Below are positions 4,773 to 57,712 of a stretch of DNA of 64,000 bases, piece by piece. The position numbers were made by a program, and so were the translations under genes. This DNA is from Thermodesulfobacteriota bacterium (GTDB taxonomy: Bacteria; Desulfobacterota_D; UBA1144; Nemesobacterales; Nemesobacteraceae): positions 2,308,849 through 2,372,848 of the forward strand of contig OZ220467.1 in assembly GCA_965116075.1 (NCBI GenBank). Direction: 5' to 3'. Every line of letters starts with the position of its first letter. The stretch's first letter is position 1. The notes beneath the pieces were generated by a model. That model was not told the origin of the DNA, did no database searches, and was given only the letters and a program-made list of their open reading frames with translations.

Positions 4773-5684
4773 GTGAAAAAACCAAAAACTTTATATCTGG
4801 CCAATTCTTATGGATTTTCTTTACACGGAACTTGCGGAACAATTTTGAGATAAGGCATTGGTATTATTGATAAAGTAGAAAAATAAAATGTTCTTTACTG
4901 GACAGGTTTTAGTTTAACCCCAGATGAGTCAGAAACAGCGTGGTCGCCTTTGAATAGTACATGCAATCCTTGAATAACTTTGGATGAACATTTGGATAAA
5001 CTAGAGATGGTACGTTTATGGGCTTTTCTGTTTTTCGATAGGACTCACATAGCACGATAGCGGGTGGAGAATTTCTGTTTGGGATGCGATCTACATACAT
5101 GCACAGGATAATATATAAGAAAATGAAGCCTGTCAAGTGGAAAAAGCAAATAAACTACAAATATACATGGACAGAATATTACACGAAAAACAGATAAAAG
5201 TAAACTAATATGAATAAGTTACACTCAAAAAAAGGTAGATTTTTCCCGCAAGTTCAGTTTACAGCAACGAGAAGGTCCTCTGAAGGAATTGGTAAAAGTT
5301 CTGAAATCTATGGGAGCTGAAGTGTGGGAACCGTTTTCTCGAAACAATCAAGTTGATAAAGCGGTTGCAGGCTGGGCATGGAGAGTGGGACAGTTAGATC
5401 TTCAAGATGTACGCAGTGCTGATGGGTTATTCGCGGTTGTAAACGGGTGTCCTCCGGATGAAGGAGTCATGGTGGAATTAGGCATGGCTATTGCTTGGAG
5501 TAAACCCGTATTTTTGTTCCGAGATGACTTTCGTAGATGTACAGACAGCGAAGATTATCCGCTCAATCTTATGCTGTTTTCTGGAATGCCTGAAAAGGGA
5601 TGGAACGCTTACTTATATGGTTCTGTAAAAGAACTAACCGATCCACATAAGGCCCTGGTAAAATGGCTTAATGAAACTGACTAG
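4773..5684 (+). pseudogene. Nucleoside 2-deoxyribosyltransferase-like gene split by MITE-1
   Basis: The 5' piece runs from GTG 4773 to 4825 (VKKPKTLYLANSYGFSL). The 3' piece is ORF 5289..5684, whose frame is open from 5259. Removing 4826-5257 plus one TTTACA copy joins them in frame (..GFSLQQREGPLKELVKVL..). Confidence 0.75.
4826..5257. mobile_element. MITE family 1, copy a (432 bp)
   Basis: 12-bp terminal inverted repeats CGGAACTTGCGG / CCGCAAGTTCAG (11 of 12 match). Flanked by the direct 6-bp duplication TTTACA (4820-4825 and 5258-5263). Near-identical inverted copy at 14412-14842. Confidence 0.85.
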
Positions 5685-6353: not shown

Positions 6354-7579
6354 GTGTTGCGTCAAAGGCAGCATTTTGTGTATAATGTGTTTTAAGGCGA
6401 GGGATCTGTGTTCCGAGTCATCTTTCCACAACAAAGGAGGAGGAACCATGAAGAAGTACATTGTGCGCCTGTCGGAGGCGGAACGCAAGACCTGTCAGGA
6501 GGTCATCGGAAAACTCAAGGGTAGCAGTCAGAAAGCGCGCAGGGCGCGAATTCTGTTGCAGGTTGATGCGGATGGGCCAGATTGGTGCGACCACTAGGTC
6601 GCGGAGGCATACGGTTGTTGGGAGCACACCGTCGCGAACGTGCGCAAACGTTGCGTGCTGGAAGGCTTTGAGTTAGCCCTCAACGGGCGGCAACGAGACC
6701 CATCCACCTGGCCGCCGAAGCGTCTGGACGGGCGGCAGGAAGCCGCGCTGATCGTGTTGCGGCTGGGGCCGCCACCGGCTGGCTACGGCCAATGGTCACT
6801 ACGTCTGCTGGCACGCGAGGCGGTTGAGACCGGCATCTGTGAATCGATCAGCCACGAAACCGTCAACAAGACATTAAAAAAAACGGCATTGCGGGGCGCT
6901 ATCTGCAGTACTGGGTGATTCCGCCGAAGGCGGACGGGGAGTATGTGGCGGCCATGGAAGATGTTCTGTCGACCTACGATGAGCGACGACCAGTGGTCTG
7001 TATGGACGAACAGCCGGTACAGATGGTGGGGGAAACCCGCCAGCCATTGCCTGCAACCACGGAGCATCCGCGTCGTGTGGACTATGAGTATCAACGTGCT
7101 GGCATGGCCTCGGTGTTCCTGTTCTGTGAACCGCTGGCAGGTTGGCGTACGGTGACGGTGCGAGAGCGGCGCACCAAGTTAGACTGGGCGGAGGAGGTGG
7201 CGGCTCTGCTGGAGAGCCGCTATGCAAACTGCGAGATGGTCACGCTGGTGCTGGACAACCTCAACACGCACACGCAGGGAGCGTTGTACGAGGCTTTCGA
7301 GCCGGAACGGGCGCGGCGGCTGAGGCAGCGCATCAAGTTCCAGTATACTCCGAAGCACGCGAGTTGGCTGAACGTGGCTGAGTGTGAGTTGAGTTGTCTG
7401 ACGCGGCAGTGTCTGAAGGGTCGACGGATCGGGGACCTAGGCGAGTTGCGGGCCGAAGTAACGGCGTGGTCGCAACGCGTCAACGCAAGCCAGCGTGGTG
7501 TGAACTGGCGTATGTCGGTTGCCGATGCCCGTTGCAGACTCAAGTCTCTCTATCCAAAAATCATTGCTTGACGGAACAC
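6354..7579 (+). mobile_element. IS630-family insertion sequence (1226 bp)
   Basis: Terminal repeats GTGTTGCGTCAA (6354-) and TTGACGGAACAC (-7579). TA duplication at 6352-6353 and 7580-7581. Visibly more GC-rich than its flanks. Confidence 0.85.
6448..7571 (+). pseudogene. IS630-family DDE transposase, inactivated
   Basis: HTH part MKKYIVRLSEAERK.. An in-frame TAG at 6595-6597 falls where homologs continue (..DWCDH*VAEAYG..). There is a frame change at the A8 run near 6878-6886 (..LKKNGIAGRYLQYWVIPPKAD in the shifted frame). The DDE core is in ORF 6915..7571. Confidence 0.85.
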
Positions 7580-7625: not shown

Positions 7626-7660
7626 AAAAAAAAGCCCCGCAGGGGATAACCTGCAGGGCC
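7626..7660 (-). terminator. Rho-independent terminator of RTX paralog 1
   Basis: The minus strand reads GGCCCTGCAGG-ttatc-CCCTGCGGGGC followed by T8. The same hairpin follows paralog 3. Confidence 0.7.
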
Positions 7661-7685: not shown

Positions 7686-8858
7686 TTAGTTGTCTTGGAA
7701 AATGTAGGTTCGTGTTTTGGTATTAAATGTTGTACTTATAAACCTAGTCAGGGTCGCTTTATTGGTTACGATCTCTGCCGCTTTTGCCTGGTTTGCCGAC
7801 CCATTGACTTCTATAGTAACATAATTGACACCATTGACTTTAATAATACCCGCCGCGCTAGTTAGTGCTCTAGCGTTATCTCCTGCTGAGAAACCTCTGA
7901 AGTAGATTTTATCTTCTGCTGTATTGAAGTCCTTTATAACCTTAATACCTGGGTTAGCGTTATAGCTAATAAGAAAAGTATCAGCTCCAGCCCCTCCGGT
8001 AAGAGTATCAGCTCCAGTAAATCCCCAAAGAGTGTCATCGCCTTCTCCTCCGACTAGGGTGTCATCGCCGCTCCCTCCGTTAACAACATCAGCTCCAGCC
8101 CCGCCGTTTTGGGTGTCATCCCCTTCATCTCCAAAGAGGAAGTTGTCTTTGTCGTTTCCGGTAAGAGTGTCATCGCCTTTGCCGCAAAGAACAGTCTCAA
8201 TACCTTCAAATGTAAACGTCCCAGTGCCTGATAAAGAAGACCCATCATAAGTCCCCTTAGAAAGATCAATAGTTATATTATCGGTAATCTGATCGGAGTC
8301 AGTACGATTATAGGTACCGGTGACCGTACTAATAAGATCATCGCTTGCCTCTCTACGGCAATATATGATATCGTTACCATCACCGCCAAGCCATTTATTA
8401 GCGCCTGCTTGTTCCCAAATATAAAAGTGATCGCCCCCCCCTTCGCCGTACATTGTATCATCACCAGCTCCCCCTATCATTTTGTCATCGCCCCCGCCAG
8501 CGTAAACAATATCATCTCCGGCTTTAGCTCTAATCTCATTATTATTCCGATTTCCACAAATAACATCGGCATCATCGGTTCCGTTGATATTGTCGTCAGC
8601 AATACCTAATACACCATTTATTCCATTGCTAACATCACATCTTGAATCACCAAAAGGTTTTCCATCAGCTCCGGCGCTTCCATCGGCACCAGCATCCCCT
8701 TTATCGCCTTTGTTCCCTTTATCGCCTTTGTCGCCTTTATCACCTTTCGCCCCGTCCTTTCCCGCCGGCCCTGCTGGGCCTCTCTCCCCCTCACAAGCCA
8801 CGAAAAAAACTGCTCCAGTGAGCAGTAACAACATCACTAATAAATTGTGTAACTTCAT
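7686..8858 (-). CDS. Lipoprotein-signal / collagen-like (GXY) / RTX calcium-binding repeat protein, paralog 1
   Basis: The ATG at 8858 is preceded by AGGAGG. Signal MKLHNLLVMLLLLTGAVFFVAC (lipobox-like VAC). GXY run GERGPAGPAGKDGAKGDKGDKGDKGNKGDKGDAGADGSAGADG. RTX nonapeptides (GGAGDDTMYG, GGSGDDTLVGGEGDDTLWG, GGAGADTF). Confidence 0.85.
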   Translation of the reverse strand: MKLHNLLVMLLLLTGAVFFVACEGERGPAGPAGKDGAKGDKGDKGDKGNKGDKGDAGADGSAGADGKPFGDSRCDVSNGINGVLGIADDNINGTDDADVICGNRNNNEIRAKAGDDIVYAGGGDDKMIGGAGDDTMYGEGGGDHFYIWEQAGANKWLGGDGNDIIYCRREASDDLISTVTGTYNRTDSDQITDNITIDLSKGTYDGSSLSGTGTFTFEGIETVLCGKGDDTLTGNDKDNFLFGDEGDDTQNGGAGADVVNGGSGDDTLVGGEGDDTLWGFTGADTLTGGAGADTFLISYNANPGIKVIKDFNTAEDKIYFRGFSAGDNARALTSAAGIIKVNGVNYVTIEVNGSANQAKAAEIVTNKATLTRFISTTFNTKTRTYIFQDN

Positions 8859-8952
8859 AATACAACCTCCTGTATAAGTTGTTCCATTTATAAATGGACA
8901 TTTATCTGGCAAACCCTTGTTATAAAACCTTCATTCTTAAGTCAGTCTTTTG

Positions 8953-25546: not shown

Positions 25547-25897
25547 ATGATAATAAAAATTGAAAACCTGAGACTTCGCACAATAGTCGGAATCTATGAC
25601 TGGGAGAAAAAGGAAAAACAAGATCTGGTCATAAACGTAACTATTAAGTTTGACGGTGGGCGGGCCAGGATAACTGATAGTATTGAAGACACCGTTGACT
25701 ATAAATCCGTAAATAAAAAGATCATAAGTTTCGTAGAAACAAACAACTTTAACCTGCTTGAAAGGATTGCAGGAGGCATATGCGATATATCTCTTGAATG
25801 TCCGAAGGTAAAAAAAGTGTCGGTCAAGGTAGAAAAACCTGGAGCGCTCAGGTTTGCAGACTCTGTGTCAGTAACAGAAACAAAAAAGCAGGGATAA
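25547..25897 (+). CDS. folB: Dihydroneopterin aldolase
   Basis: 116 aa. IVGIYDWEKKEKQDLVINV.., DTVDYKSV and LLERIA blocks. Confidence 0.8.
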   Translation: MIIKIENLRLRTIVGIYDWEKKEKQDLVINVTIKFDGGRARITDSIEDTVDYKSVNKKIISFVETNNFNLLERIAGGICDISLECPKVKKVSVKVEKPGALRFADSVSVTETKKQG

Positions 25898-25916
25898 GCA
25901 CCGACTACAATCGTTA

Positions 25917-27894
25917 GTGTTCGGTGTAGTGACTGCTCTTCGTATGACTGAAACGCTCTTTGATGACAGAACATCAGCAAGTATTGTTGAAACTTCGCCT
26001 GATGCCAAATGGCTGGAAATCGAACTCTTTGGAGAAGCTTTGCGAACCGGTCTTGGCGAAAGTGACTTTGAATTTCAGTGCGGCGTGGTTACATATCCAC
26101 TTCTAGGCCAGGGTATCTTCGTTGCAAGCGTCACCGAACTCGCACACATCTATAACAAGCCTGATAAAGCCAGCAGCATCCATGTCGGTACACTCTCTCA
26201 GGCATCGTCACTGCCTGTGTACTTGCTGGCAGATGAACTGCTTGGAAAACACTTTGCCGTCCTTGGCACAACTGGATCAGGTAAGTCATGTTCCGTAACT
26301 GTACTACTACGTGCTATTCTTGAAGTCGCGCCAAAAGCACACATGATCTTACTTGACCCACACAACGAATACCGTCAAGCATTCAAGGACAAAGCCGAAA
26401 TCATTGACCCAACAACTCTTGAACCGCCACATTGGCTCCTGAATTTCGAGGAAAGTACTGAATTGTTCATTGGTAGGACAGAATACGCTGCGACGAGCCA
26501 GAGCAACATCCTGAAAGACGCCATGCTCGCCGCACGGCAAGATTTCGTTCATTCCAACAAGGTTATGAGCGAAGAAAAGGTTACGGTAGACACACCAGTT
26601 CCATACCAACTAAGAGGCATTTGCGCTGTCCAACAAATGTATGCATATCAAGGGTTTTTAGAAGGGGTAAAAAACTTTTCACCCCAGAAATCCCCCCAAA
26701 AAGCCCCAAAAAAGCCCTGAAATCGGCTAATGTAAGTCAAAACCCAGAAATTTCACCCCACACTAAAATCGGTTGATATAACCTCTGTAAAAATTCTCCC
26801 AAAAACAAATAACTTGATGATATTATTTATTTTTAATGTCACTATAAAGGTGTCTTCATAGGTTGAAATTATAATTTGCTAGCAGAATCTTCTCCTCTGC
26901 TATAAGAGCAAGTCAATGTTGTTTCTGCTCATCCTCAAAGAAAAAGCCTCAAAAATCGTCGTAGTGTAACTACCTCAAGTTAATAACAAATTTATCATCT
27001 ACAAAAGAAATAAACCCGTAGTGGTTCTATCATCATCGAAAGAAATCAGCATCAAGAATCGCTACAGCGCAAATGCCTCAACTAAGCAAACTTATTGAGA
27101 ACATCAATGCCAACAAACCAAAGCAGGAATCAAAACAAGCCCCTTACCTCAAGATAGAGAATAAAATTCAAACGTTGCAACAGGACAGCCGCTTTTCTTT
27201 TTTGATCCGTCCAGACAAGGATGTAAAAGATAATCTGGAAAAAATTGTCGGGCAGTATCTGCACATACCAGTCCAAGAAAAGCCGCTTTCGATCATTGAT
27301 CTTTCAGGTGTTCCCTCGGATGTTGTGAATGTTGTCGTATCGGTATTGTGCCGTATGATTTTTGATTTCGCGATTTGGGTACCACGCCCTGTCCAAGTTC
27401 CGATTGTTTTGGTTTGCGAAGAAGCACACCGATATGCGCCGCGGCGCGATGACGCCGCCTTTCAGCCAACTAGGCAAGCACTCTCTCGCATTGCGAAGGA
27501 AGGTCGGAAATATGGTGTTGGCCTTGGGCTGATTTCCCAACGCCCCTCTGAACTAGCAGAATCGGTCCTCTCGCAGTGCAATACTCTCATCGCGTTGAGG
27601 ATGAGCAACGAACAGGATCAGAATTTTGTACAGCGCGCCTTGCCTGACTCAGTTCACAGCATTGCCAGCGTGTTGTCAACTCTGCGGACACAAGAAGCTT
27701 TGGTGGTCGGTGAAGGATCGGTCGTACCAGTTCGGTTACGCTTTATTGACCTCCCAAAGTCAAACCAGCCTCAAAGTGCCGATGTGCCATTTACAAGCCT
27801 CTGGAAAAATGAGGAGACGGATCTTAAGTATGTCAAAGACGTGGTGGTGCGCTGGCGTCTTCAAAAGCGTCCACCGATAACCGCGGAAAACTAA
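25917..27894 (+). pseudogene. HerA-like (DUF87) ATPase gene, split by MITE-2 and apparently 5'-truncated
   Basis: ORFs 25917..26720 (Walker A GTTGSGKS) and 27073..27894 (VLVCEEAHRYAP, EGRKYGVGLGLISQRPSE). They join in frame when 26614-27079 and one AACTAA copy are removed. Confidence 0.75.
26614..27079 (+). mobile_element. MITE family 2, copy A (466 bp)
   Basis: Perfect 16-bp terminal inverted repeats GAGGCATTTGCGCTGT / ACAGCGCAAATGCCTC. 6-bp duplication AACTAA (26608-26613 and 27080-27085). Confidence 0.9.
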
Positions 27895-28005
27895 ACACTG
27901 AGGCGGAATAGTTCAGTCAAAAACTAACACATCATCCCACATTCGAGTAGCCAAGTCTATCCAAAACCCACCCCAGGGCCTTATAAAACTCCGCATCAAG
28001 ATTCT

Positions 28006-29241
28006 TTAGTTGTCTGTAAAAGTAGCGGTTCTTGTTTTCCCAATTTCTAGATCTATAAACCTATATTTTGTTGAATCGTCTTTTATTTTCGTAGCTTTGT
28101 CGTTGTCTACTGTCCCGGCATCATTATGTATTATAACAATTTCCGTTCCGCCAACTGAAATCTTACCGGCAACAACAGTTATTCGTCTAGCGGTATCGCC
28201 TGTTGGGAACTTCCAAAAATAGAGTTTATCCTCTGTCAAATCAAAGTCTTTTATCGTATAAACCCCATTATCTTTACGAACAACGAAAATGTCAGCGCCT
28301 GCTCCACCAGTATAAACGTGAGTGGTTCCAGAAGCCCCGCCTGAGTAAAGAACATCATTGCCGTCACCACCGTTTAGAGTATCATTACCGCGCAGGAAAC
28401 CGCCCCAAAGAAGATCATCACCCCCGAGGCCGTTAATAATATCGGTTCCATGCCCCCCGAAAATGTAGTTGTCTTCATCGGTCCCGGTAAGAGTATCATT
28501 ACCACTCCCGCTAAGAATGTCCTCAATACCTTCAAATGTAGCCGACCCAGTCGACCCAGCATTCCCTGAAATTGAAGAAGCATCAAACGTCCCAGAAGAA
28601 AGATTAAGAGTTATAGCAGCAGTACCAAGGACACCAGACCAATATATATCTTTGCCGTCCAGTGCCGTATTATCAGGAACGGGGTGAGCCCAATAAATCA
28701 TATCCCTCCCAGGACCACCAATCAATTTGTCCCCTGATTGTTCTAGAAGAAAAAAGTGGTCCTTTCCTGCGCCTCCGTTGAGCGTATCATCACCATCACC
28801 ACCGTCAAGCCTATCATCACCATCACCACCGTTGAGTTCATCATTGCCAGCTTTCCCTTTGAGATAATCGTTTCCACCGGCACCGTAAACCGTATCATCC
28901 CCGCCCTCAGCTGCAATTATGTTTGCAACACGAGTTCCACAAATAACATCGTCATCATCTGTGCCGGTTAGGTTGTTCTGATTAATACCGACTATCCCCT
29001 GTATCCCATTGCTAACATCGCACCGAGAATCACCATATGCAGGCCCTTGGTCGCCAGCTCTGCCATCCGCCCCCGCGGGGCCTAGCGTGCCGTCCTTCCC
29101 TGGGTCGCCTTTATCGCCTTTCGCTCCGTCCTTCCCTGCTGGACCCGCCGGCCCTGCTGGTCCTCTCTCGCCCTCACAAGCCACAAACAAAACTGCTCCA
29201 GTGAGTAGCAACAACATCACTAATAAACTACGTAACTTCAT
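28006..29241 (-). CDS. Lipoprotein-signal / collagen-like / RTX repeat protein, paralog 2
   Basis: MKLRSLLVMLLLLTGAVLFVAC, GERGPAGPAGPAGKDGAKGDKGDPGKDGTLGPAGADGRAGDQG, and RTX repeats (GGDGDDRLDGGDGDDTLNGGAGKD, GGDGNDVLYSGG, GGAGADIF). Confidence 0.85.
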   Translation of the reverse strand: MKLRSLLVMLLLLTGAVLFVACEGERGPAGPAGPAGKDGAKGDKGDPGKDGTLGPAGADGRAGDQGPAYGDSRCDVSNGIQGIVGINQNNLTGTDDDDVICGTRVANIIAAEGGDDTVYGAGGNDYLKGKAGNDELNGGDGDDRLDGGDGDDTLNGGAGKDHFFLLEQSGDKLIGGPGRDMIYWAHPVPDNTALDGKDIYWSGVLGTAAITLNLSSGTFDASSISGNAGSTGSATFEGIEDILSGSGNDTLTGTDEDNYIFGGHGTDIINGLGGDDLLWGGFLRGNDTLNGGDGNDVLYSGGASGTTHVYTGGAGADIFVVRKDNGVYTIKDFDLTEDKLYFWKFPTGDTARRITVVAGKISVGGTEIVIIHNDAGTVDNDKATKIKDDSTKYRFIDLEIGKTRTATFTDN

Positions 29242-29331
29242 ATTACAACCTCCCTTATAAGTGTTCCATTTATAAATGGATATTTATGGTAAACCTTGTT
29301 ATAAAACCCTCATTCTTAAGTCAGTCTTCTG

Positions 29332-29364
29332 AGTTTACCCCCCCCCCCCCCCCTACAAAGTCAA
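29332..29364 (-). promoter_or_regulatory. Putative promoter with G16 tract giving a 21-nt spacer (paralog 2)
   Basis: Minus strand: TTGACT (29364-29359), ttgta plus G16 (run at 29338-29353), TAAACT (29337-29332). Confidence 0.55.
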
Positions 29365-29549
29365 GGACTAGCAAGAAGAGAGGCATTTGCGCTGTAAGGT
29401 TTTTGAGAGTGGTTTTAGACCGAACTTCACCTGACTGTAAGCGTTCGTTCAAGGGGTGTTTGCTTGATTAATCGTCCGTTAATCCCGTCTTAAATATTTT
29501 TTTGCATTTAAACTGGTCACTCCTTAATTGATCGGTTATCATCGGTCAT

Positions 29550-31792
29550 ATGATTGTTCACGACAAAGAGATCGGGGTTGTCAGGTTATTGGATAAAGAT
29601 GACGCTGGATGCATCAATTGCATGCCGACTACGTCGGGATGCGCTTCGTTAGACTGTAAGTTTTCGTACGAAGAGTTGCTAGCGGCTTATCAGGAGTTAA
29701 AACATAAACATCAGGAGTTAGAACATGAATTGACGCGGGAACGATCACAGTCGGGGAATTATAAATTCTGTTGGGAAAAAGCGCGTACTCATTTGGCCGC
29801 GAAAAAAGAAGAAGTAAAGCGTATCAGTCGTGTGGCGAAAAGTGCTTTATCGTTGGACAAAGAAGTACAACGACTTAGAGCATTGCTAGACGAGGTTGGA
29901 GTAGATAGGCGCAAGCGTAGCACGATTGTGTCGTTGCGGATGGAGATTGGCAGCTTGAAGAATGAGAATGCAGAGCTGAAGAAGCAGGTCAAGAACCTGC
30001 TTTCTAACCGGAAGGTTTTGTCGAATTCGTTGTACGGAAGACGTAGTGAGAAGCAGAAGAGGCCACCTTCGGGGCGCGACGACGAGGACAACAGCTCGGG
30101 GCGCCCGGTCATGGTCGTACAGCCCGACCAGATATTGAGGTGGTAGAAGAGTCGTGGCATCCGTCCGATGATGAACTTACCTGTTCCAGTTGTGGAAAGC
30201 GGTATGTTGCCAATGGGAAGCGGAGTTCGGAGATGTATGAGATCAAGGTCAAGGCGCACAAGCGCAAGATCAACAAATCCCGTCATCGTAGGGCATGCGA
30301 CTGTGAGTCATCTCCGCTCTATGTGACGGCGCCGGTGCGGCTGTTTGAGCATACGCAATATGGGATCAGTGTCTGGGCTCTATTGACATACGAGCGTTAC
30401 CGTAATCTGAGGACCTACCGCGGGATAGCGAGATTGTTTAGCGACCACGGGATTAAGATTTCGGCAGGCACTCTAGCGGACAGCGCAAAGCGCTTGGGGC
30501 CTCTGTTCGAGCCTCTCTATGACGCGATTCTCGCCCATCAAAACGAAGATAGATTGCGTCATGCAGACGAGACTAGTTGGCGTATTCAGTCACTGAGAGA
30601 AATGGGAGGTTCTCAACGCGCTTGGCTGTGGGTATCCGTGAGCAAAGACTCTGTCTTATACAAGATAGACCGTTCGCGTAGTTCTGAGGTTGCGAAGGTC
30701 CTATTCGTGGACAGCGTTGATTGTGTTTTCCTGGTCTGCGACCGCTACGGCTCCTATAAGAAGATGGTTCGGGATTTCCTCAAAGAATTCAATAAGAAAG
30801 TGATACTGTGTTTTTGTTGGGCGCATATGCGAAGAGATTTTATAAAATGCGCTGCAGGAGACGAGCAACTTGAGCAATGGAGAGAACAATGGATAAAACG
30901 CATTGCAGAGATGTATGAGTTAAACAAACAGCGGTGTGATCACTACGTCTCAGGTAATACTCCAGAGTTTGAACGAGCGCAGGCAAAGCTGAAAGAAGCG
31001 TGCGACGCAATGTTTGCCAAAGCCGAGAGTGAATTGTCCGAGTTAGCGAAAGATGCGGATGAGTGGAAGCCACTTAAGTCGCTTATCAATCATCGTGAGG
31101 GGCTGAGCGTGTTCGTTAAACATCCCCAAGTTCCCATGGATAACAATATTGCGGAGAGCGCGCTGCGAGGCCCTGCCCTCGCCCGTAAAATAAGTTTTGG
31201 ATCTGACAGTCTAGAGGGAGCAAGGACATCAGCCATTCTATACACGGTGCTGGGTACGCTCTCAAAGAATGGTATTGACATTCTTAGTTGGCTAACCCAA
31301 GTTTATCATGTCCAAAAAATAAATGTTAGATATCAGCTGGTTAGATGCCATAAAAAATTGGTGTGGCACTACATTTTGTTACGGGAACTATTTTCTGCGA
31401 AGTGGAATCAACCCCCAGTGTATCTAGAATTTCCTGTTGCTATATCTAAGGTTGGGTAGACACATGCACATGTAGCGTTTTCCCATCTGAGTGACATATA
31501 TAGAAATATTATTACATCGTAGGCCATATGTCAACAGACAAAAAAGATTAGTAGGGCACTACATTTACCTTTTAAAATTATAAATAACGATATATCAGTG
31601 GGATACGAGCCTCCCTCATAGGAAAAAAGGCCTAAATTAGTCGAATTTTAGTGGGTTTTGGATAAACTTGGGCTAAAGGGGTGGTTGACTGCCTGCGCGG
31701 AAGATGGCAGGAGTCCCCCGGAAGATCTATCGCCTTGGTTGCCATGGTCAATGAGTGAGCAACGTTTGCGCGACTTTGGCGCCAAGAGATGA
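29550..31792 (+). pseudogene. IS66-family transposase, copy II (frameshift plus MITE-3 insertion)
   Basis: One extra base relative to copy I near 30071-30080 splits ORFs 29550..30146 and 30140... The reading frame is then broken at 31296 by MITE-3. The C-terminus resumes at 31677 (KGWLTACAEDG..) and ends in an ATGA overlap with the DUF4338 start. Confidence 0.8.
31296..31672. mobile_element. MITE family 3, full copy (about 377 bp)
   Basis: Termini CCCAAGTTTATC / GATAAACTTGGG. Flanked by CTAA (31292-31295 and 31673-31676). The uninterrupted target AGTTGGCTAAAGGGGTGG is seen in copy I (reverse complement of about 10385-10402). Confidence 0.8.
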
Positions 31793-32682
31793 GCGACGAG
31801 GTTGAGTGCCGCTACTACGGGCGAGAGTTCACGGCTGCGGAGATGAAACTGCTACGCGCTTTGATAGCCGGGCCCGAGCGGCTCAACCGGACTGCTCTGT
31901 CCAGAGAGTTTTGCAGACGTATTGGGTGGTACAAGCCCGATGGCGGACTCAAGGATATGACGGCCAGAGTTACCATGCTATCCATGCATAGGGATGGCAT
32001 CATCAAGTTACCGCCACCCACCCGAGTGTCGCCCCGAGCCAAGCCTATTGTCTTTGGAGTGGACACCGAACCGCATAAGCTACCGGTTCCCAAGACCCTT
32101 GACGAAGTCCGTCCACTGCAGGTGCACACTGTTGTCAGTGGCACCAGGCAAGGCAAACTATGGAACGAGTTTGTAGCGCGTTATCACTACTTAGGTTATA
32201 AGACATTAGTCGGGGCTCAGATGCGCTACGCAGTGTGCGACCGCCACGGTTCGCCGCTGGCCATGCTAGGCTTCTCTACCGCCGCATGGAAACTTGCGCC
32301 GCGCGATACCTTCATAGGATGGACATCCGAGCGACGTGAAAAGAATTTACCGCTGGTTATTGACAACCCCAGATTCCTGATTCTTCCATGGATACAGATA
32401 CCCAATCTTGGGTCACACATACTCTCGGTAGTGTGTCGCCGCTTGCCCAAGGAGTGGACTCAACGATACAACTTCACACCTGTGCTCATTGAGACGTTTG
32501 TACAAATTCCGACATATACAGGCACCGTATACCGGGCATCTGGATGGATACGTGTTGGAACTACACAGGGGCGTGGTCGCTACGACCGGTACAACCGATG
32601 CGATAAACCCAAAAAGGACATTTGGCTACGACCGCTTCACAGGAATTGGAGACAAATCCTCAATCGCTCAAACCCCCTATAA
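31789..32682 (+). CDS. DUF4338-like protein (DruA-like domain), the only intact copy
   Basis: 297 aa. YHYLGYKTLVGAQMRY, NPRFLILPW, LIETFV, YRASGW and GRGRYD blocks match my recollection of the DUF4338 signature. The start overlaps the transposase stop (ATGA). Confidence 0.7.
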   Translation: MSDEVECRYYGREFTAAEMKLLRALIAGPERLNRTALSREFCRRIGWYKPDGGLKDMTARVTMLSMHRDGIIKLPPPTRVSPRAKPIVFGVDTEPHKLPVPKTLDEVRPLQVHTVVSGTRQGKLWNEFVARYHYLGYKTLVGAQMRYAVCDRHGSPLAMLGFSTAAWKLAPRDTFIGWTSERREKNLPLVIDNPRFLILPWIQIPNLGSHILSVVCRRLPKEWTQRYNFTPVLIETFVQIPTYTGTVYRASGWIRVGTTQGRGRYDRYNRCDKPKKDIWLRPLHRNWRQILNRSNPL

Positions 32683-32894
32683 ACACCCCTTGAACGAACG
32701 CTTACACCTGACTTTCAGCCTTTATTTCTCACCTAACACATTGAGATTCAACGAGCTTTTGCCTAAAAAGAGGCATTTTGCCTGCGCATTTATGTTTCCA
32801 GTGCATAACACGCTATATAACCTCTATCTCCCTTTCTAGTGTTATTTTAATAAAATATATTGACTTATTATTGTTTCCAGTGCAGAATAACACT

Positions 32895-34661
32895 ATGTCT
32901 CTACATATTGAAACCATCCCTAACAAACGCGGCCGTGCCTCTATCCTTCTGCGTGAGGCTAAAAGAGAGGGTAAACGTATTCGTAGAACAACCATCGCCA
33001 ATCTTACCGATCTACCACCGCATATCATCGCAGGCTTTGATGCAATCATTCGCGGAGGCGTCGCTTTTCCCTCCACCAGCGATGTCTTTAATGTCAGACG
33101 TAGTCTGCCTCACGGTCATGTCTGCGCAATCCTTGCTTGTTGTAAGCAAATAGGACTGTCTAAAATACTTTCCCGCAAAGCAAATAGACAAAGCAACCTA
33201 GCTCTTGCGGCTATTGCCACTAGAATCTTTTCGCCAGCATCGAAACTCGCTACCGCCCGAGCGCTTTCCGCATCTACCGCTAATTCCAGCCTTGGACCCC
33301 TTCTAGGTCTCGGCCATGTCCGTGGCAAAGAAATGCTCTCAATGCTTGATTGGCTACGCGATCGTCAACCATGGATAGCAAAGAGTCTAGCCAACAGACA
33401 TCTTGGTAAAGATGCCCTGCTTCTCTATGACATTAGTTCGTCATGGTTTGAAGGGAGTTGCTGTCCGCTAGCAGCTTTTGGCCATAGTCGTGACGGCAAA
33501 AAAGGAAAAAAGCAGATTGTTTATGGCCTGCTATGTAGCGCTGACGGTTGTCCTATAGACATTGAAGTGTTTACCGGCAATACCGCCGACCCAAAAAGCG
33601 TAGCAACGCAAGTGAAGAAGATAAAACAACGTTTTGGTATCTCCAACATTGCCCTGGTGGGTGACCGAGGTATGTTGACCACTGCCCGAATTCGTGATGA
33701 TCTAAAGCCAACTAGTCTTGACTGGCTCTCGGCTCTGACTAACCGTAGCATTGCTACTCTTCTTAAAGAAACTGATAAAGTATCAGCGCCGATACAACCG
33801 GACAATCTCAAGGACAACGCAGTGGTAGAAATCAGCAGTCCTAATTTTCCAGGAGAACGACTTATGGTCTGCCTTAATCCGCGTTTGCGGGAGGAACGTA
33901 GGCTGAAAAGAGAAGAACTATTGGAAGCTACCGAGCGTATTCTTTGCAAGATTGCCTCATCCGTAGAAAATGGTCGTCTGCGGGGAAAAGATCATATTGC
34001 TCACCGTCTCGGTCGCGAGGGTAACGAAATGAAAGTGGAGAAGCATTTTGACATTAAAGTGACAGATGAAAGTCTAATTTGGCAACGTAATATCCAAAGC
34101 ATTGAAGCCGAAGCTAAATTCGATGGCATTTACGTAATCCGTACCAGTCTTCCGGTTGAATCCATCACTGCTCATCAAACTGTCACTGGCTATAAGAATT
34201 TAGCAACGGTGGAACGAGCATTTCGATATATGAAATCAGATCTTAGTGTTCGTCCCTTTCATGTTTACACTGCAGAACATCTACGCGGTCATCTGTTCCT
34301 ATGTATGCTTGCTTACTATGTGGAGTGGCATATGCGCCGTCGTCTCGCACCCATGCTATTTGAGGATGAGAATAGAGAGGCTGCGAGCAGAGAAAAACAA
34401 ACGCCTGTAGAACCTGCGATAACATCACAAGGCGCAAGGCAAAAAATAGCAAGCAAAAAAACCGAAGATGGTCTACCTGTTCATAGCTTTAGAACTTTAT
34501 TGGAAGACCTTGCAACGCTATCAGTGATTGGAGTTTCTTTGCCCAGTCATCCAGAGGCAACCGTACCTGTAATTGCTCCACCAACTCCTGTGCAACAAAG
34601 AGCATTTGATCTACTCAACACAGACCCAACCCGGTTTGTTTCCAGTGCAATGACAGGTTGA
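32895..34661 (+). CDS. IS1634-family (IS4-like) DDE transposase
   Basis: 588 aa counted from the ATG at 32895 (MSLHIETIPNKRGRASILLREAKREGKRIRRTTIANL). LYDISSSWFEG, LVGDRGM and the C-terminal YKNLATVERAFRYMKSDL block. Confidence 0.8.
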   Translation: MSLHIETIPNKRGRASILLREAKREGKRIRRTTIANLTDLPPHIIAGFDAIIRGGVAFPSTSDVFNVRRSLPHGHVCAILACCKQIGLSKILSRKANRQSNLALAAIATRIFSPASKLATARALSASTANSSLGPLLGLGHVRGKEMLSMLDWLRDRQPWIAKSLANRHLGKDALLLYDISSSWFEGSCCPLAAFGHSRDGKKGKKQIVYGLLCSADGCPIDIEVFTGNTADPKSVATQVKKIKQRFGISNIALVGDRGMLTTARIRDDLKPTSLDWLSALTNRSIATLLKETDKVSAPIQPDNLKDNAVVEISSPNFPGERLMVCLNPRLREERRLKREELLEATERILCKIASSVENGRLRGKDHIAHRLGREGNEMKVEKHFDIKVTDESLIWQRNIQSIEAEAKFDGIYVIRTSLPVESITAHQTVTGYKNLATVERAFRYMKSDLSVRPFHVYTAEHLRGHLFLCMLAYYVEWHMRRRLAPMLFEDENREAASREKQTPVEPAITSQGARQKIASKKTEDGLPVHSFRTLLEDLATLSVIGVSLPSHPEATVPVIAPPTPVQQRAFDLLNTDPTRFVSSAMTG

Positions 34662-34753
34662 ATTTGCCTATATCCTAATACTGTATTGACCATTCCGTAT
34701 TTTTAACAAGTGAAGTTCGGTTTAACCTCCTTTAACAGGTTCCCTTAGGACAT

Positions 34754-36712: not shown

Positions 36713-37178
36713 GAGGCATTTGCGCTGTCCAAAAAATGTATGAATATCAAGGGTTTTTAGAAGGGGTAAAAAACTTTTTACCCCAGAAATCCCCCCAAAA
36801 TACCCCAAAAAAGTCCTAAAATCGGCTAATGTAAGTCAAAACCCAGAAATTTCACCCCACACTAAAATCGGTTGATATAACTTCTGTAAAAATTCTCCCA
36901 AAAACAAATAACTTGATGATATTATTTATTTTTAATGCCACTATAAAGGTGTCTTCATAGGTTGAAATTATAATTTGCTAGCAAAACCTTCTTCTCTCCT
37001 ATAAGAGCAAGTCAAAGTTGTTTCTGGTCATCCTCAAGAAAAAAGCCCCAAAAATCGTTGTAGTGTAACTACCTCAAATTAATAACAAAGTTATCATCTA
37101 CAAAAGAAATAAACCCGTAGCAGTTCCACAATCATCAAAAGAAATCAGCATTAAGAATCACTACAGCGCAAATGCCTC
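36713..37178 (+). mobile_element. MITE family 2, copy B (466 bp)
   Basis: Perfect 16-bp termini. 6-bp duplication TTTATT (36707-36712 and 37179-37184). Intergenic. Confidence 0.9.
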
Positions 37179-37383
37179 TTTATTGTAACTAACAACCCGT
37201 CCAAAATTAAAGCGCTGTTTAATAGGCGGTAAATAAAAGATGGTTGGGTCTGTAGAAAAAGCAGAAAACAACTGAAACCCTTTTTCTTCCAGAAGTAGTT
37301 TTGGCGACCACATGCTTTGAGATGCAGAAAAGACGGACTTTGAATAGTTAGGAACACGAAAAACAACTTCCATTAATTCTGGC

Positions 37384-56346: not shown

Positions 56347-56376
56347 TTGACTTTGTAAGGGGGGGGGGGGTAAACT
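56347..56376 (+). promoter_or_regulatory. Putative promoter with G12 tract in the 18-nt spacer (paralog 3)
   Basis: TTGACT (56347-56352), ttgtaa plus G12 (56359-56370), TAAACT (56371-56376). The ATG lies 95 nt downstream. Confidence 0.55.
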
Positions 56377-56470
56377 CAAAAGGCTGGCTTAAGAATAAGA
56401 TTTTTACAATAAGATTTTGCCAGATAAATGTCCATTTATAAATGAAACAACTTATAAGGGAGGTTGTAAT

Positions 56471-57652
56471 ATGAAGTTGCGTAACTTATTAGTGATGTTG
56501 TTACTGCTCACTGGAGCAGTTTTGTTTGTAGCTTGTGAGGGCGAAAGAGGTCCAGCGGGTCCAACAGGGCCAGTAGGTCCAGCGGGTCCAGCAGGGAAGG
56601 ACGGAGTAGACGGAAAGGACGGCGCACAAGGGCCAGCGGGGGCAGCAGGCGCGAAAGGCGATGACCTAACCGAAGGTGATCCTAGATGCGACCGCAGTAA
56701 CGGAATAGATGTACCCGTAGGAATACGACTCATTTATGGTACAGGCGATGATGATGTTATTTGCGCAAATCGCCTAGATAACCAGATTAGAGCCGGTGAG
56801 GGCGATGATACGGTTTACGGTGGGGATGGAGCTGACAAAATGATAGGTGGCGATGGCGATGATACGCTTTACGGTGAAGATGGCGCTGATGATTTTTTTA
56901 TTTGGCAACAAAAAGGCGCTAATACATATATTGGTGGGAATGGGAAAGACATGATCTATTTTTGGAGAGATAATCCGAGTGCAACAAGAATAAAAACGGG
57001 CGTTAGTGCTGGTATATATACTGAGCAGAGTGATGGTTCTGACGCCCCTAACAGCGATATAACCTTTGATCTTTCTTCTGGGAGTTTTAATGCTACTTTT
57101 TCGACTACGTCTGGCTCGTATACATTTGAGAGCATTGAGGCTGTTAGAGGTGGCGATGGGGATGACACTATCACTGGAGACGACAAAGACAACTTCATCC
57201 ATGGAGGTTACGGAGACGACACCATAAACGGCGGGGGTGGCGATGATATGCTTCGCGGGGGGGCCGGGGATGACATAATAAACGGCGACGACGGGGACGA
57301 CTTGTTTTACGCATACAATAGGACCACGGATACGCTTACCGGCGGAGCTGGGGCAGACACTTTTGTTTTTGAGAATTGGAATACGCCAGGAGTCCACGTG
57401 ATAAAGGACTTCAACTTGGATGAAGATATAATCTATCTCAACGGTTATCCCTCGGGTGATTCAGCGCGGGATATAACTAATTCAGGCGCTAACCTATTAG
57501 CGGGTACAACTACTTTTGCGCTGATTGAAAAGGGTGGCGCCAACAGCTCCACTCACGCCAAAGCGATAGCAGACAAGACAAGCGCCGTTAAGTTTGTAGA
57601 TAATCCGCAACTTGATCCGGAAACGAGAACTTGGTCTTTTGATGACGATTAA
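56471..57652 (+). CDS. Lipoprotein-signal / collagen-like / RTX repeat protein, paralog 3
   Basis: The ATG at 56471 is preceded by GGGAGG. MKLRNLLVMLLLLTGAVLFVAC, GERGPAGPTGPVGPAGPAGKDGVDGKDGAQGPAGAAGAKG, and RTX repeats (GGDGDDTLYGEDGADDF, GGGGDDMLRGGAGDDIINGDDGDD, GGAGADTF). Confidence 0.85.
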   Translation: MKLRNLLVMLLLLTGAVLFVACEGERGPAGPTGPVGPAGPAGKDGVDGKDGAQGPAGAAGAKGDDLTEGDPRCDRSNGIDVPVGIRLIYGTGDDDVICANRLDNQIRAGEGDDTVYGGDGADKMIGGDGDDTLYGEDGADDFFIWQQKGANTYIGGNGKDMIYFWRDNPSATRIKTGVSAGIYTEQSDGSDAPNSDITFDLSSGSFNATFSTTSGSYTFESIEAVRGGDGDDTITGDDKDNFIHGGYGDDTINGGGGDDMLRGGAGDDIINGDDGDDLFYAYNRTTDTLTGGAGADTFVFENWNTPGVHVIKDFNLDEDIIYLNGYPSGDSARDITNSGANLLAGTTTFALIEKGGANSSTHAKAIADKTSAVKFVDNPQLDPETRTWSFDDD

Positions 57653-57677
57653 CAATCTTGGTGCGGAGTTTTATACG

Positions 57678-57712
57678 GCCCTGCAGGTTATCCCCCTGCG
57701 GGGCTTTTTTTT
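57678..57712 (+). terminator. Rho-independent terminator of RTX paralog 3
   Basis: GGCCCTGCAGG-ttatc-CCCCTGCGGGGC followed by T8. Confidence 0.7.

Follow-up and report, generated by a model that had tools for sequence, protein, structure and literature searches.

The window, by which we mean the whole 64-kb stretch of DNA analysed here, belongs to a Thermodesulfobacteriota contig of 2,386,527 bp and carries three members of a family of putative surface lipoproteins, paralogs 1, 2 and 3. Upstream of the paralog 2 gene, the minus strand from 29364 to 29332 reads TTGACT, ttgta, a run of 16 G residues (G16) and TAAACT, which sets two hexamers of the sigma-70 type 5 + 16 = 21 nt apart. This is how the first-pass annotation had read the interval, and a re-reading of the sequence agrees. 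The surrounding region reads ...tagtccTTGACTttgtaGGGGGGGGGGGGGGGGTAAACTcagaag... on the same strand, and G16 is the consensus length from an assembled long-read genome. The paralog 2 locus, with its untranslated region (UTR) and open reading frame (ORF), is laid out as follows.

29365-29420, minus strand: conserved upstream part of the promoter cassette; in alignments, homology to paralog 3 reaches ~29420
29359-29364, minus strand: −35 hexamer TTGACT (TTGACT or TTGACA in 41 of 41 complete family promoters)
29354-29358, minus strand: non-G part of the spacer, ttgta, 5 nt compared with 6-7 nt in most other paralogs of the species
29354-29359, minus strand: alternative −35 TTTGTA, the best in range, 16 nt (all G) from the −10 and matching TTGACA at 3 of 6 positions
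29338-29353, minus strand: poly-G tract of 16 bases (C16 on the plus strand), the hypermutable part of the spacer
29332-29337, minus strand: −10 hexamer TAAACT, followed by the conserved CAgAAG discriminator/start region
29242-29331, minus strand: conserved 5′ UTR of ~90 nt, from the alignment of the three window loci
29254-29249, minus strand: Shine-Dalgarno sequence GGGAGG
28006-29241, minus strand: paralog 2 gene, an intact ORF of 411 amino acids

The corresponding elements at the other two loci are these.

8982-8953, minus strand: paralog 1 promoter, with TTGACT (8982-8977), ttgtga, G12 (8970-8959) and TAAACT (8958-8953), spacer 18 nt; gene at 7686-8858
56347-56376, plus strand: paralog 3 promoter, with TTGACT (56347-56352), ttgtaa, G12 (56359-56370) and TAAACT (56371-56376), spacer 18 nt; gene at 56471-57652

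The alignable region of the three loci begins ~35-60 nt 5′ of the −35 hexamer, takes in the 5′ UTR, the Shine-Dalgarno sequence and the region for the signal peptide, and reaches into that for the collagen repeats. The 16-mer ACAGCGCAAATGCCTC (29395-29380) in the upstream part of the cassette is common to all paralogs of the species in these alignments. Hexamers and surroundings had been described as alike at loci 1-3, with 3 nt more in the spacer of locus 2, and both the alignment and the sequence bear this out: the tract of locus 2 is longer by four G and its spacer by 3 nt, the last non-G spacer base of loci 1 and 3 having been lost or turned into G. In the 64-kb window, runs of ten or more G are confined to the three family sites, giving 13 overlapping matches against 0.12 expected, a number reached in none of 100 shuffles, and the longest other G/C run is 8.

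The three ORFs, 28006-29241 and 7686-8858 on the minus strand and 56471-57652 on the plus strand, encode proteins of 390-411 amino acids whose N-terminus, MKL…LLLLTGAVLFVAC, is a lipoprotein signal peptide that carries the lipobox cysteine (…LFVAC). In the family alignment the LFVAC signal peptide is invariant, and the mature parts are 49-63% identical. The signal peptide is followed by 13-17 collagen GXY triplets (~15 in paralog 2), the conserved linker RCDVSNGI, the RTX nonapeptides and, as another conserved part, a C-terminal module in which paralog 2 keeps the motif IKDFDLxEDKLYF. The GXY run is uninterrupted and exceeds the threshold of Pfam Collagen (PF01391) in all three paralogs, with 29.6-32.1 bits (29.6 in paralog 2; cutoff 27.2), and the GGxGxDxUx nonapeptides do the same for HemolysinCabind, with 77-88 bits (87.8 in paralog 2; cutoff 23). 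The closest solved structures in the PDB are the RTX blocks of the CyaA adenylate cyclase toxin (E = 1e-39). RTX proteins are typically exported by type I secretion with an uncleaved C-terminal signal; the lipoprotein signal peptide and lipobox would argue for Sec/Lgt processing here instead, and the surface location and the role of the family proteins are predictions. The paralog 2 ORF is full length and keeps every family-invariant residue, and the −35, −10, UTR and Shine-Dalgarno sequence in front of it are all intact.

The window's genome holds ~40 such paralogs, counted as 35 clusters (90% identity) with a member on the contig, five more from the cluster listings, and paralog 1; they make up a multigene lipoprotein family with a conserved 5′ cassette and divergent mature regions. 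Another 27 complete family loci were found on OZ242002.1, a 1.98-Mb chromosome labelled Thermodesulfobacteriota, and the matches outside these two lineages in the protein search were generic RTX proteins of 600-700 amino acids. Transketolase identity is 88% between the window and OZ242002.1 and 78% between the window and proteins named Candidatus Dadabacteria, a class within Thermodesulfobacteriota in the NCBI taxonomy. The organism itself is uncultured and a relative of Candidatus Dadabacteria. Insertion sequences (IS) of the IS66 and IS4 types are abundant in its genome, as are split genes. An IS load and split genes of this kind may point to a host-restricted lifestyle, and Dadabacteria are often associated with sponges. 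A second assembly of the window's species, ENA ERZ24894574, is 98.9% identical across 10.9 kb of synteny, and six ortholog pairs in the cluster listings link its strain with that of the window; all promoter counts for the species are drawn from the window and this assembly, whose loci carry L numbers below. Paralog 2 has no ortholog in this assembly, and in the protein search no protein outside the window exceeds 61% identity to it. Two alleles of one paralog, P0006 (L203 10001-11212) and P0129 (L204 4670-5890), differ by one GPA triplet (403 and 406 amino acids), and thus the collagen region also varies in size. A scan of metagenome and genome collections for the invariant 16-mer GCTAGTCCTTGACTTT gave 101 and 35 matches, respectively, and as no G tract followed the match in the loci examined, these were set aside as chance.

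In all 41 complete promoters read, 27 from OZ242002.1 and 14 from the window's species, the G tract that separates the −35 from the −10 hexamer is unbroken. Each of the 27 reads TTGAC(T/A), 6-7 mixed bases, the G tract, TA(G/A)AAT and then CAAAG, and each of the 14 reads TTGACT, 5-7 bases, the G tract, TAAACT, TAAAAT or TAGACT, and then CAAAAG. The −10 of paralog 2 is homologous to the TAAACT/TAAAAT/TAGACT/TAGAAT blocks followed by CAAA(A)G across all family promoters. When information content per position was computed for the 41 promoters anchored on the tract, the sole conserved blocks were cTTGAC(T) and TA(G/A)A(A/C)T-CAAA, one to each side of the tract; the flanks, which come from several diverged subfamilies, carry near zero information. 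That both species retain the hexamer pair and the uninterrupted tract, in 41 of 41 promoters, is the signature by which comparison reveals a functional sigma-70-type promoter. By the same signature, the spacer appears to be selected to stay a homopolymer. Taken together with the promoter scan, the conservation of the hexamers would place the tract within the −35/−10 spacer of the promoter predicted to drive the gene.

In the consensus scan, loci 1 and 3 score as sigma-70-like promoters (spacer 18 nt), and no in-range minus-strand promoter is called upstream of paralog 2. Between the end of an IS66 element upstream and the start codon of paralog 2, the scan gave no sigma-70-like promoter on the minus strand that could stand in for the G-tract one. 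Transcription of paralog 2 from a different promoter was one of the cases that the first-pass annotation had set against its own reading, and the search made for it turned up none on this strand. The alternative −35 TTTGTA scores under the scan threshold, and it is possible that it supplies residual weak transcription. As a 21-nt spacer lies outside the reported working range and the only substitute matches at 3 of 6 positions, paralog 2 is most likely off or weak.

The tract might also serve some purpose other than spacing, with transcription starting elsewhere, a factor binding the tract, a G-quadruplex or H-DNA forming in it, or the tract acting mainly as an IS target. A 2.44-kb IS4-family element does sit inside the tract in three of three copies, tracts of G15 or more could in principle form a three-tetrad quadruplex on the non-template strand, and the modal spacers of the two species, 15 and 18 nt, both miss the canonical optimum. 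Against this, the hexamer pair abutting the tract is all that is conserved across every subfamily in both species, the scan found no competing promoter, and no RNA element was found in the UTR: the fold of the conserved 5′ UTR was no better than that of shuffles (z = +0.5 for paralog 1 and +0.9 for paralog 2), and an Rfam scan of the window returned one tRNA only, with no match in the 5′ UTR. We regard such a role in place of spacing as scarcely credible.

The lengths of the tract in the window's species set paralog 2 apart. Among 12 intact units, nine have G12, the mode, and G13, G15 and G16 occur once each. Two further promoters have been severed from their genes by IS.

Intact, G12, spacer 18 nt: paralog 1, paralog 3, L061, L199, L203:2942, L204:4558 and L206
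Intact, G12, spacer 19 nt: L200 and L201
Intact, G13, spacer 19 nt: L202:13569
Intact, G15, spacer 21 nt: L204:9890
Intact, G16, spacer 21 nt: paralog 2
Severed, G14, spacer 20 nt: L203:4808 (4808-4821), with IS66 copies in the UTR
Severed, G15, spacer 20 nt: L205:7503 (7503-7517), with an IS in the signal-peptide codons

Uninterrupted homopolymers of about eight or more are of hypermutable length, and both the G16 of paralog 2 and the G12-G16 range of the intact promoters fall in this class. Three cassettes are near-identical over ~220 nt and differ essentially in the tract alone, which is G12, G14 and G15, respectively. Two of the promoters, L204:4558 (G12) and L203:4808 (G14), are haplotypes of one locus, found on two contigs of a single metagenome assembly; over 1963 bp their flanks share 99.1% identity, which is direct evidence for a tract length that changes faster than all of its surroundings. 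Polymorphism of the tract at one and the same locus is therefore found for the family; paralog 2 itself has no counterpart in ERZ24894574 with which to be compared. Across the sequence of the species, G/C runs are bimodal in length, with a background of up to 8 and a separate class of 12-19. OZ242002.1 likewise has a background of up to 7 and a separate class of 9-11, and its family tracts are G9 in 23 of 27 cases, with a modal spacer of 15 nt and a range of 15-16 nt. This shift of the set point between the two species is seen in the family promoters and in other tracts alike.

As long homopolymers are the chief indel error mode of long-read platforms, G16 might be a miscall of a real tract of about G12-13, and the suspiciously uniform G9 of OZ242002.1 (23/27) is a sign that assembly behaviour may shape the lengths. 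However, the same genome gives G12 at the other two loci, and four additional bases would be a large consensus error. The independent assembly of the same species resolves G10, G12, G13, G14, G15, G16 and G19 at various sites, which argues that lengths are neither capped nor random. We therefore consider a miscall very unlikely.

Poly-G tracts of the same kind occur outside the family, and the long ones in ERZ24894574 sit in restriction-modification genes.

L062 5417-5429 (ERZ24894574 ctg6754l): C13 tract in a Type ISP restriction-modification gene
L199 4451-4462: G12 tract (coding strand), 140 nt into a C5 DNA methyltransferase gene

The C13 tract splits the Type ISP gene into ORFs of 514 and 1030 amino acids, and C12 or C15 would give a single ORF of 1587 amino acids. 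Among the lengths of 10-14 tried for the methyltransferase, only G12 keeps its frame of 311 amino acids, which makes this gene a candidate phase-variable methyltransferase (phasevarion). The presence of frameshift tracts in restriction-modification genes of the lineage indicates that poly-G serves it as a general contingency device.

Several observations bear on which length corresponds to expression. The intact promoters have a hard floor at G12 with a tail that runs upward only, the loci released from selection by IS have left G12, and 12 is the in-frame length in both restriction-modification genes; together these mark G12 as the favoured ON length. The expanded tracts of the severed promoters (G14 and G15), compared with G12 in nine of the 12 intact ones, further suggest that selection keeps tracts at G12 and that slippage has a bias to expansion. 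On the other hand, porA of Neisseria meningitidis and tp0126 of Treponema pallidum have poly-G between the −35 and −10, with an optimum spacer of 17 nt and loss of activity within 1-2 bases of it (PMC3899988, PMC7864442). If the same optimum held here, all three window paralogs would be off or weak, ON would be a 17-nt spacer (G11) in a minority of cells, and paralog 2 would just be in a deeper OFF state. The 17-nt optimum known from the characterised poly-G spacer switches (PMC7864442) speaks for this, as do the lack of a 17-nt spacer in any of the 41 promoters, with the two species flanking that length (18-19 and 15-16 nt), and the fact that an assembly consensus conceals minority ON variants. 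The G12 floor, the upward-only tail and the departure of selection-freed loci from G12 suggest instead that G12 is the functional length, and both restriction-modification contingency genes are likewise in frame with 12. In addition, sigma-70 promoters with an 18-nt spacer usually retain substantial activity. We judge it improbable that all three paralogs are off.

We favour a slipped-strand contingency system at the family promoters in which paralog 2 is in an OFF or weak state through its 21-nt spacer, and we hold this to be probably correct. The interval would then be the core promoter of one gene in a large, dispersed family of surface lipoproteins that combine a collagen-like stalk with an RTX calcium-binding beta-roll, each gene having its own sigma-70-type promoter with poly-G filling most of the spacer. 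Runs of G12-G16 would gain and lose bases through slipped-strand mispairing during replication, and each slip would alter the distance between the hexamers and their rotational phasing. With G12 (18-19 nt), the length kept in intact units, taken as the expressed state, the G16 of paralog 2 would leave the hexamers 21 nt apart, where RNA polymerase is expected to initiate poorly or never. In the dominant genotype of the sequenced population, paralog 2 would thus most likely be silent or very weak, and paralogs 1 and 3 would be in the standard state. The OFF state of paralog 2, the dependence of activity on length and the reversibility of the change are each what we infer from the sequence.

A number of points weigh against this reading. 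No 17-nt spacer occurs in the 41 promoters of the two species, whose modes are 18 and 15 nt, and the 3-nt shift between the modes could be a biological slippage equilibrium or homopolymer under-calling in one of the assemblies. The narrow distributions (G12 in 9/12 and G9 in 23/27) look more constrained than those of a freely switching tract. The IS-severed promoters also carry expanded tracts, G14 and G15, so tract length may follow selection on the locus and not a regulated switch. For the RNA polymerase of Dadabacteria, the promoter rules of E. coli and other bacteria are assumed to apply. Lastly, paralog 2 shows signs of neglect, with an IS66 element 72 nt upstream, a degenerate terminator, and a position in an island that is absent from the sister strain. 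An altered helical repeat was considered as the cause of the off-optimum mode and rejected: poly(dG)·poly(dC) has a helical repeat of ~10.7 bp per turn, which over 12 bp amounts to a twist difference of under one quarter of a base pair and does not make 18 nt an effective 17. The features that bear on the neglect of paralog 2 are the following.

29437-31459, plus strand: IS66-family element (Pfam DDE_Tnp_IS66); its end, …ACGCTTAC, is 72 nt 5′ of the −35 hexamer of paralog 2
27960-27980, minus strand: degenerate terminator remnant GGCCCTGGGGTGGGTTTTGG of paralog 2
7633-7660, minus strand: strong terminator of paralog 1, GGCCCTGCAGGTTATCCCC(C)TGCGGGGCT followed by T7
57677-57705, plus strand: the same terminator in paralog 3

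The boundary of the IS66 element at 29436/29437 was set by BLAST against other copies, which are 93-98% identical. Read-through from the element into paralog 2 was considered and dismissed, as its ORFs point away. Paralog 2 lies in an island of the window at ~25.9-34.7 kb (the gap from 25894 to 34721), which holds fragments of HerA, paralog 2, the IS66 element and an IS4-type element. At the syntenic site of the 98.9%-identical strain, ctg6754l of ERZ24894574 has the Type ISP system, which shows the island to be swapped between strains.

These features raise the prospect that paralog 2 is in decay: under relaxed selection its tract would have drifted up by expansion-biased slippage, leaving the gene locked off and heading to loss. 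Both IS-severed promoters have expanded in this way (G14 at L203:4808 and G15 at L205:7503) and nine of 12 intact ones keep G12, from which G16 is four steps away; the IS66 end lies close to the −35 of paralog 2, the terminator hairpin that paralogs 1 and 3 have in conserved form is present there only as a degenerate copy, and its island is replaced by the Type ISP system in the near-identical strain. However, the ORF is full length with all of its family-invariant residues, the −35, −10, UTR and Shine-Dalgarno sequence are intact, and the otherwise intact unit L204:9890 also has G15 and a 21-nt spacer. Decay agrees with the contingency reading that paralog 2 is off at present and differs from it on reversibility only; we take it to be unlikely, albeit the most serious of the competing accounts. 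G16 may thus be a reversible deep-OFF state or the product of drift under relaxed selection, and under both the gene is currently down. The first-pass annotation had also described the locus as the snapshot of a combinatorial phase-variation system. The promoter-like hexamers, the mutable tract and the outlying G16 are in keeping with that description, which holds to this extent; the IS-severed promoters have expanded tracts too, and drift would fit as well.

The proposed arrangement can be compared with known contingency systems. As in porA and tp0126, an uninterrupted poly-G makes up most of the sigma-70-type spacer of a surface-protein gene, and in those genes changes by a single G alter transcription. 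In contrast, porA and tp0126 are single genes with ~8-11 G, and here a whole family is concerned, with 12-16 G, a modal spacer of 18-19 nt and knowledge drawn from sequence. In the vlp genes of Mycoplasma hyorhinis, a poly-A tract in every promoter governs ON/OFF switching (PMC10502178, PMC11868660). They form a multigene family of surface lipoproteins with conserved promoter, 5′ UTR and signal peptide and divergent mature parts, as found here, and each gene has a homopolymer in its own promoter, where indels in the Vlp system switch genes independently and give combinatorial expression (PMC10502178, which cites Citti and Wise 1995, and PMC11868660). In-frame repeat length varies in both systems, here by the one GPA triplet between P0006 and P0129. 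The differences are that the tract is poly-A in vlp and poly-G here, that vlp is a small cluster and the present family comprises ~40 genes scattered round the chromosome, and that the host is a wall-less pathogen in one case and a didermic uncultured Dadabacteria-type bacterium in the other, in which switching is predicted from sequence. The proteins share no homology with Vlp: Collagen and HemolysinCabind are the only Pfam domains here, and the PDB matches are RTX proteins.

Subfamily II tpr genes of T. pallidum (tprE, G and J) and tprL likewise have variable poly-G in their promoters, with short tracts permitting and longer ones silencing transcription (PMC7864442). They resemble the present family as paralogous surface-protein genes that each have a variable promoter poly-G, and many further poly-G tracts are spread across the small, host-restricted genome of T. 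pallidum (PMC7864442). Unlike here, where it forms the −35/−10 spacer, the tpr tract is situated at the start site or the −10, or immediately 5′ of one of these, and spacing has been ruled out for tprL (PMC7864442). Phasevarion restriction-modification genes, a concept treated in PMC11868660, have their likeness in the G12 and C13 tracts of the C5-methyltransferase and Type ISP genes of the same lineage; their effect is a translational frameshift, compared with the transcriptional effect that we propose for the family, and the tracts lie in related loci outside the window interval. The family would therefore function like Vlp, porA and tp0126 by analogy and is homologous to none of them.

A possible second means of silencing is offered by the IS4-family element mentioned above, which is 2.44 kb long and sits within the poly-G spacer of three different family promoters in ERZ24894574, in both orientations, with G runs on either side.

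L202 7417-9893: IS4-family copy flanked by G14 and G19
L203 13852-16320: IS4-family copy flanked by G13 and G13
L204 236-2702: IS4-family copy flanked by G10 and G16

Its protein of 594 amino acids has DruA-like, DDE_Tnp_1_assoc and DDE_Tnp_1 domains. The three copies found in the DNA examined all lie in G tracts, and the window contains none; their placement suggests either that the element is specific for poly-G targets or that its target duplication is long and consists of G alone.

Phase variation through a slipping homopolymer in the promoter spacer is a textbook mechanism, and it is the organism and the gene family that provide a new setting. Full-text literature searches gave no paper joining Dadabacteria with phase variation and nothing relevant on sponge symbionts with phase-variable homopolymeric tracts. 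If the switch works, each cell would show a random subset of ~40 collagen-like calcium-binding surface lipoproteins, a form of bet-hedging as expected against phage, grazers or a host recognition system. Tract lengths in long-read metagenomes would then show directly, with no need for cultivation, which of the genes are on in a natural population; consensus homopolymer lengths would be biologically meaningful, would have to be spared 'polishing' to uniformity and would call for validation at the level of reads. More tentatively, and with considerable doubt, this may be the largest surface repertoire switched by promoter repeats yet, with ~40 collagen-RTX lipoprotein genes, each switchable on its own, and phase-variable restriction-modification in a small-genome, IS-rich, uncultured and probably host-associated bacterium, and with the poly-G-targeting IS4-family element as a second, insertional route to silencing. 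If that is true, the biology of contingency loci would reach well past the classical pathogens, and the element might be an example of an IS with homopolymeric G as its recognition target. The interest is accordingly greater for the whole family and the tract-targeting IS than for the single G16 allele.

Paralogs 1 and 2 share a perfect 14-nt palindrome, CCATTTATAAATGG, in the 5′ UTR, where it lies ~25 nt from the start codon.

29266-29279: palindrome CCATTTATAAATGG at paralog 2
8879-8892 (approximate): the same at paralog 1
56434-56447 (approximate): the same at paralog 3, with one mismatch

It is not strictly kept, as several ERZ24894574 paralogs also have one mismatch, and it might be an operator or a small hairpin. 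In the ORF of paralog 1, a C8 run at 8434-8441 (G8 on the coding strand) would, with one base more or less, leave a product of 153 or 194 amino acids. The run may be a second, translational switch or may just reflect the glycine codons of the RTX repeat.

In the island around paralog 2, a HerA/DUF87-type ATPase is apparently split into the ORFs 25917-26720 and 27073-27894 and is probably a pseudogene in a defence/mobile-element island. The ~245-nt element found in front of the paralog 1 promoter recurs as two orphan copies, one between the two parts of the ATPase (26838-27083) and one at 36937-37182. Both copies stop exactly at …ACAGCGCAAATGCCTC, ~17 nt short of the expected −35, and continue into unrelated sequence. 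The same 16-mer is also the point at which the homology of all cassettes begins, so that a recombination junction or a mobile-element end may lie here.

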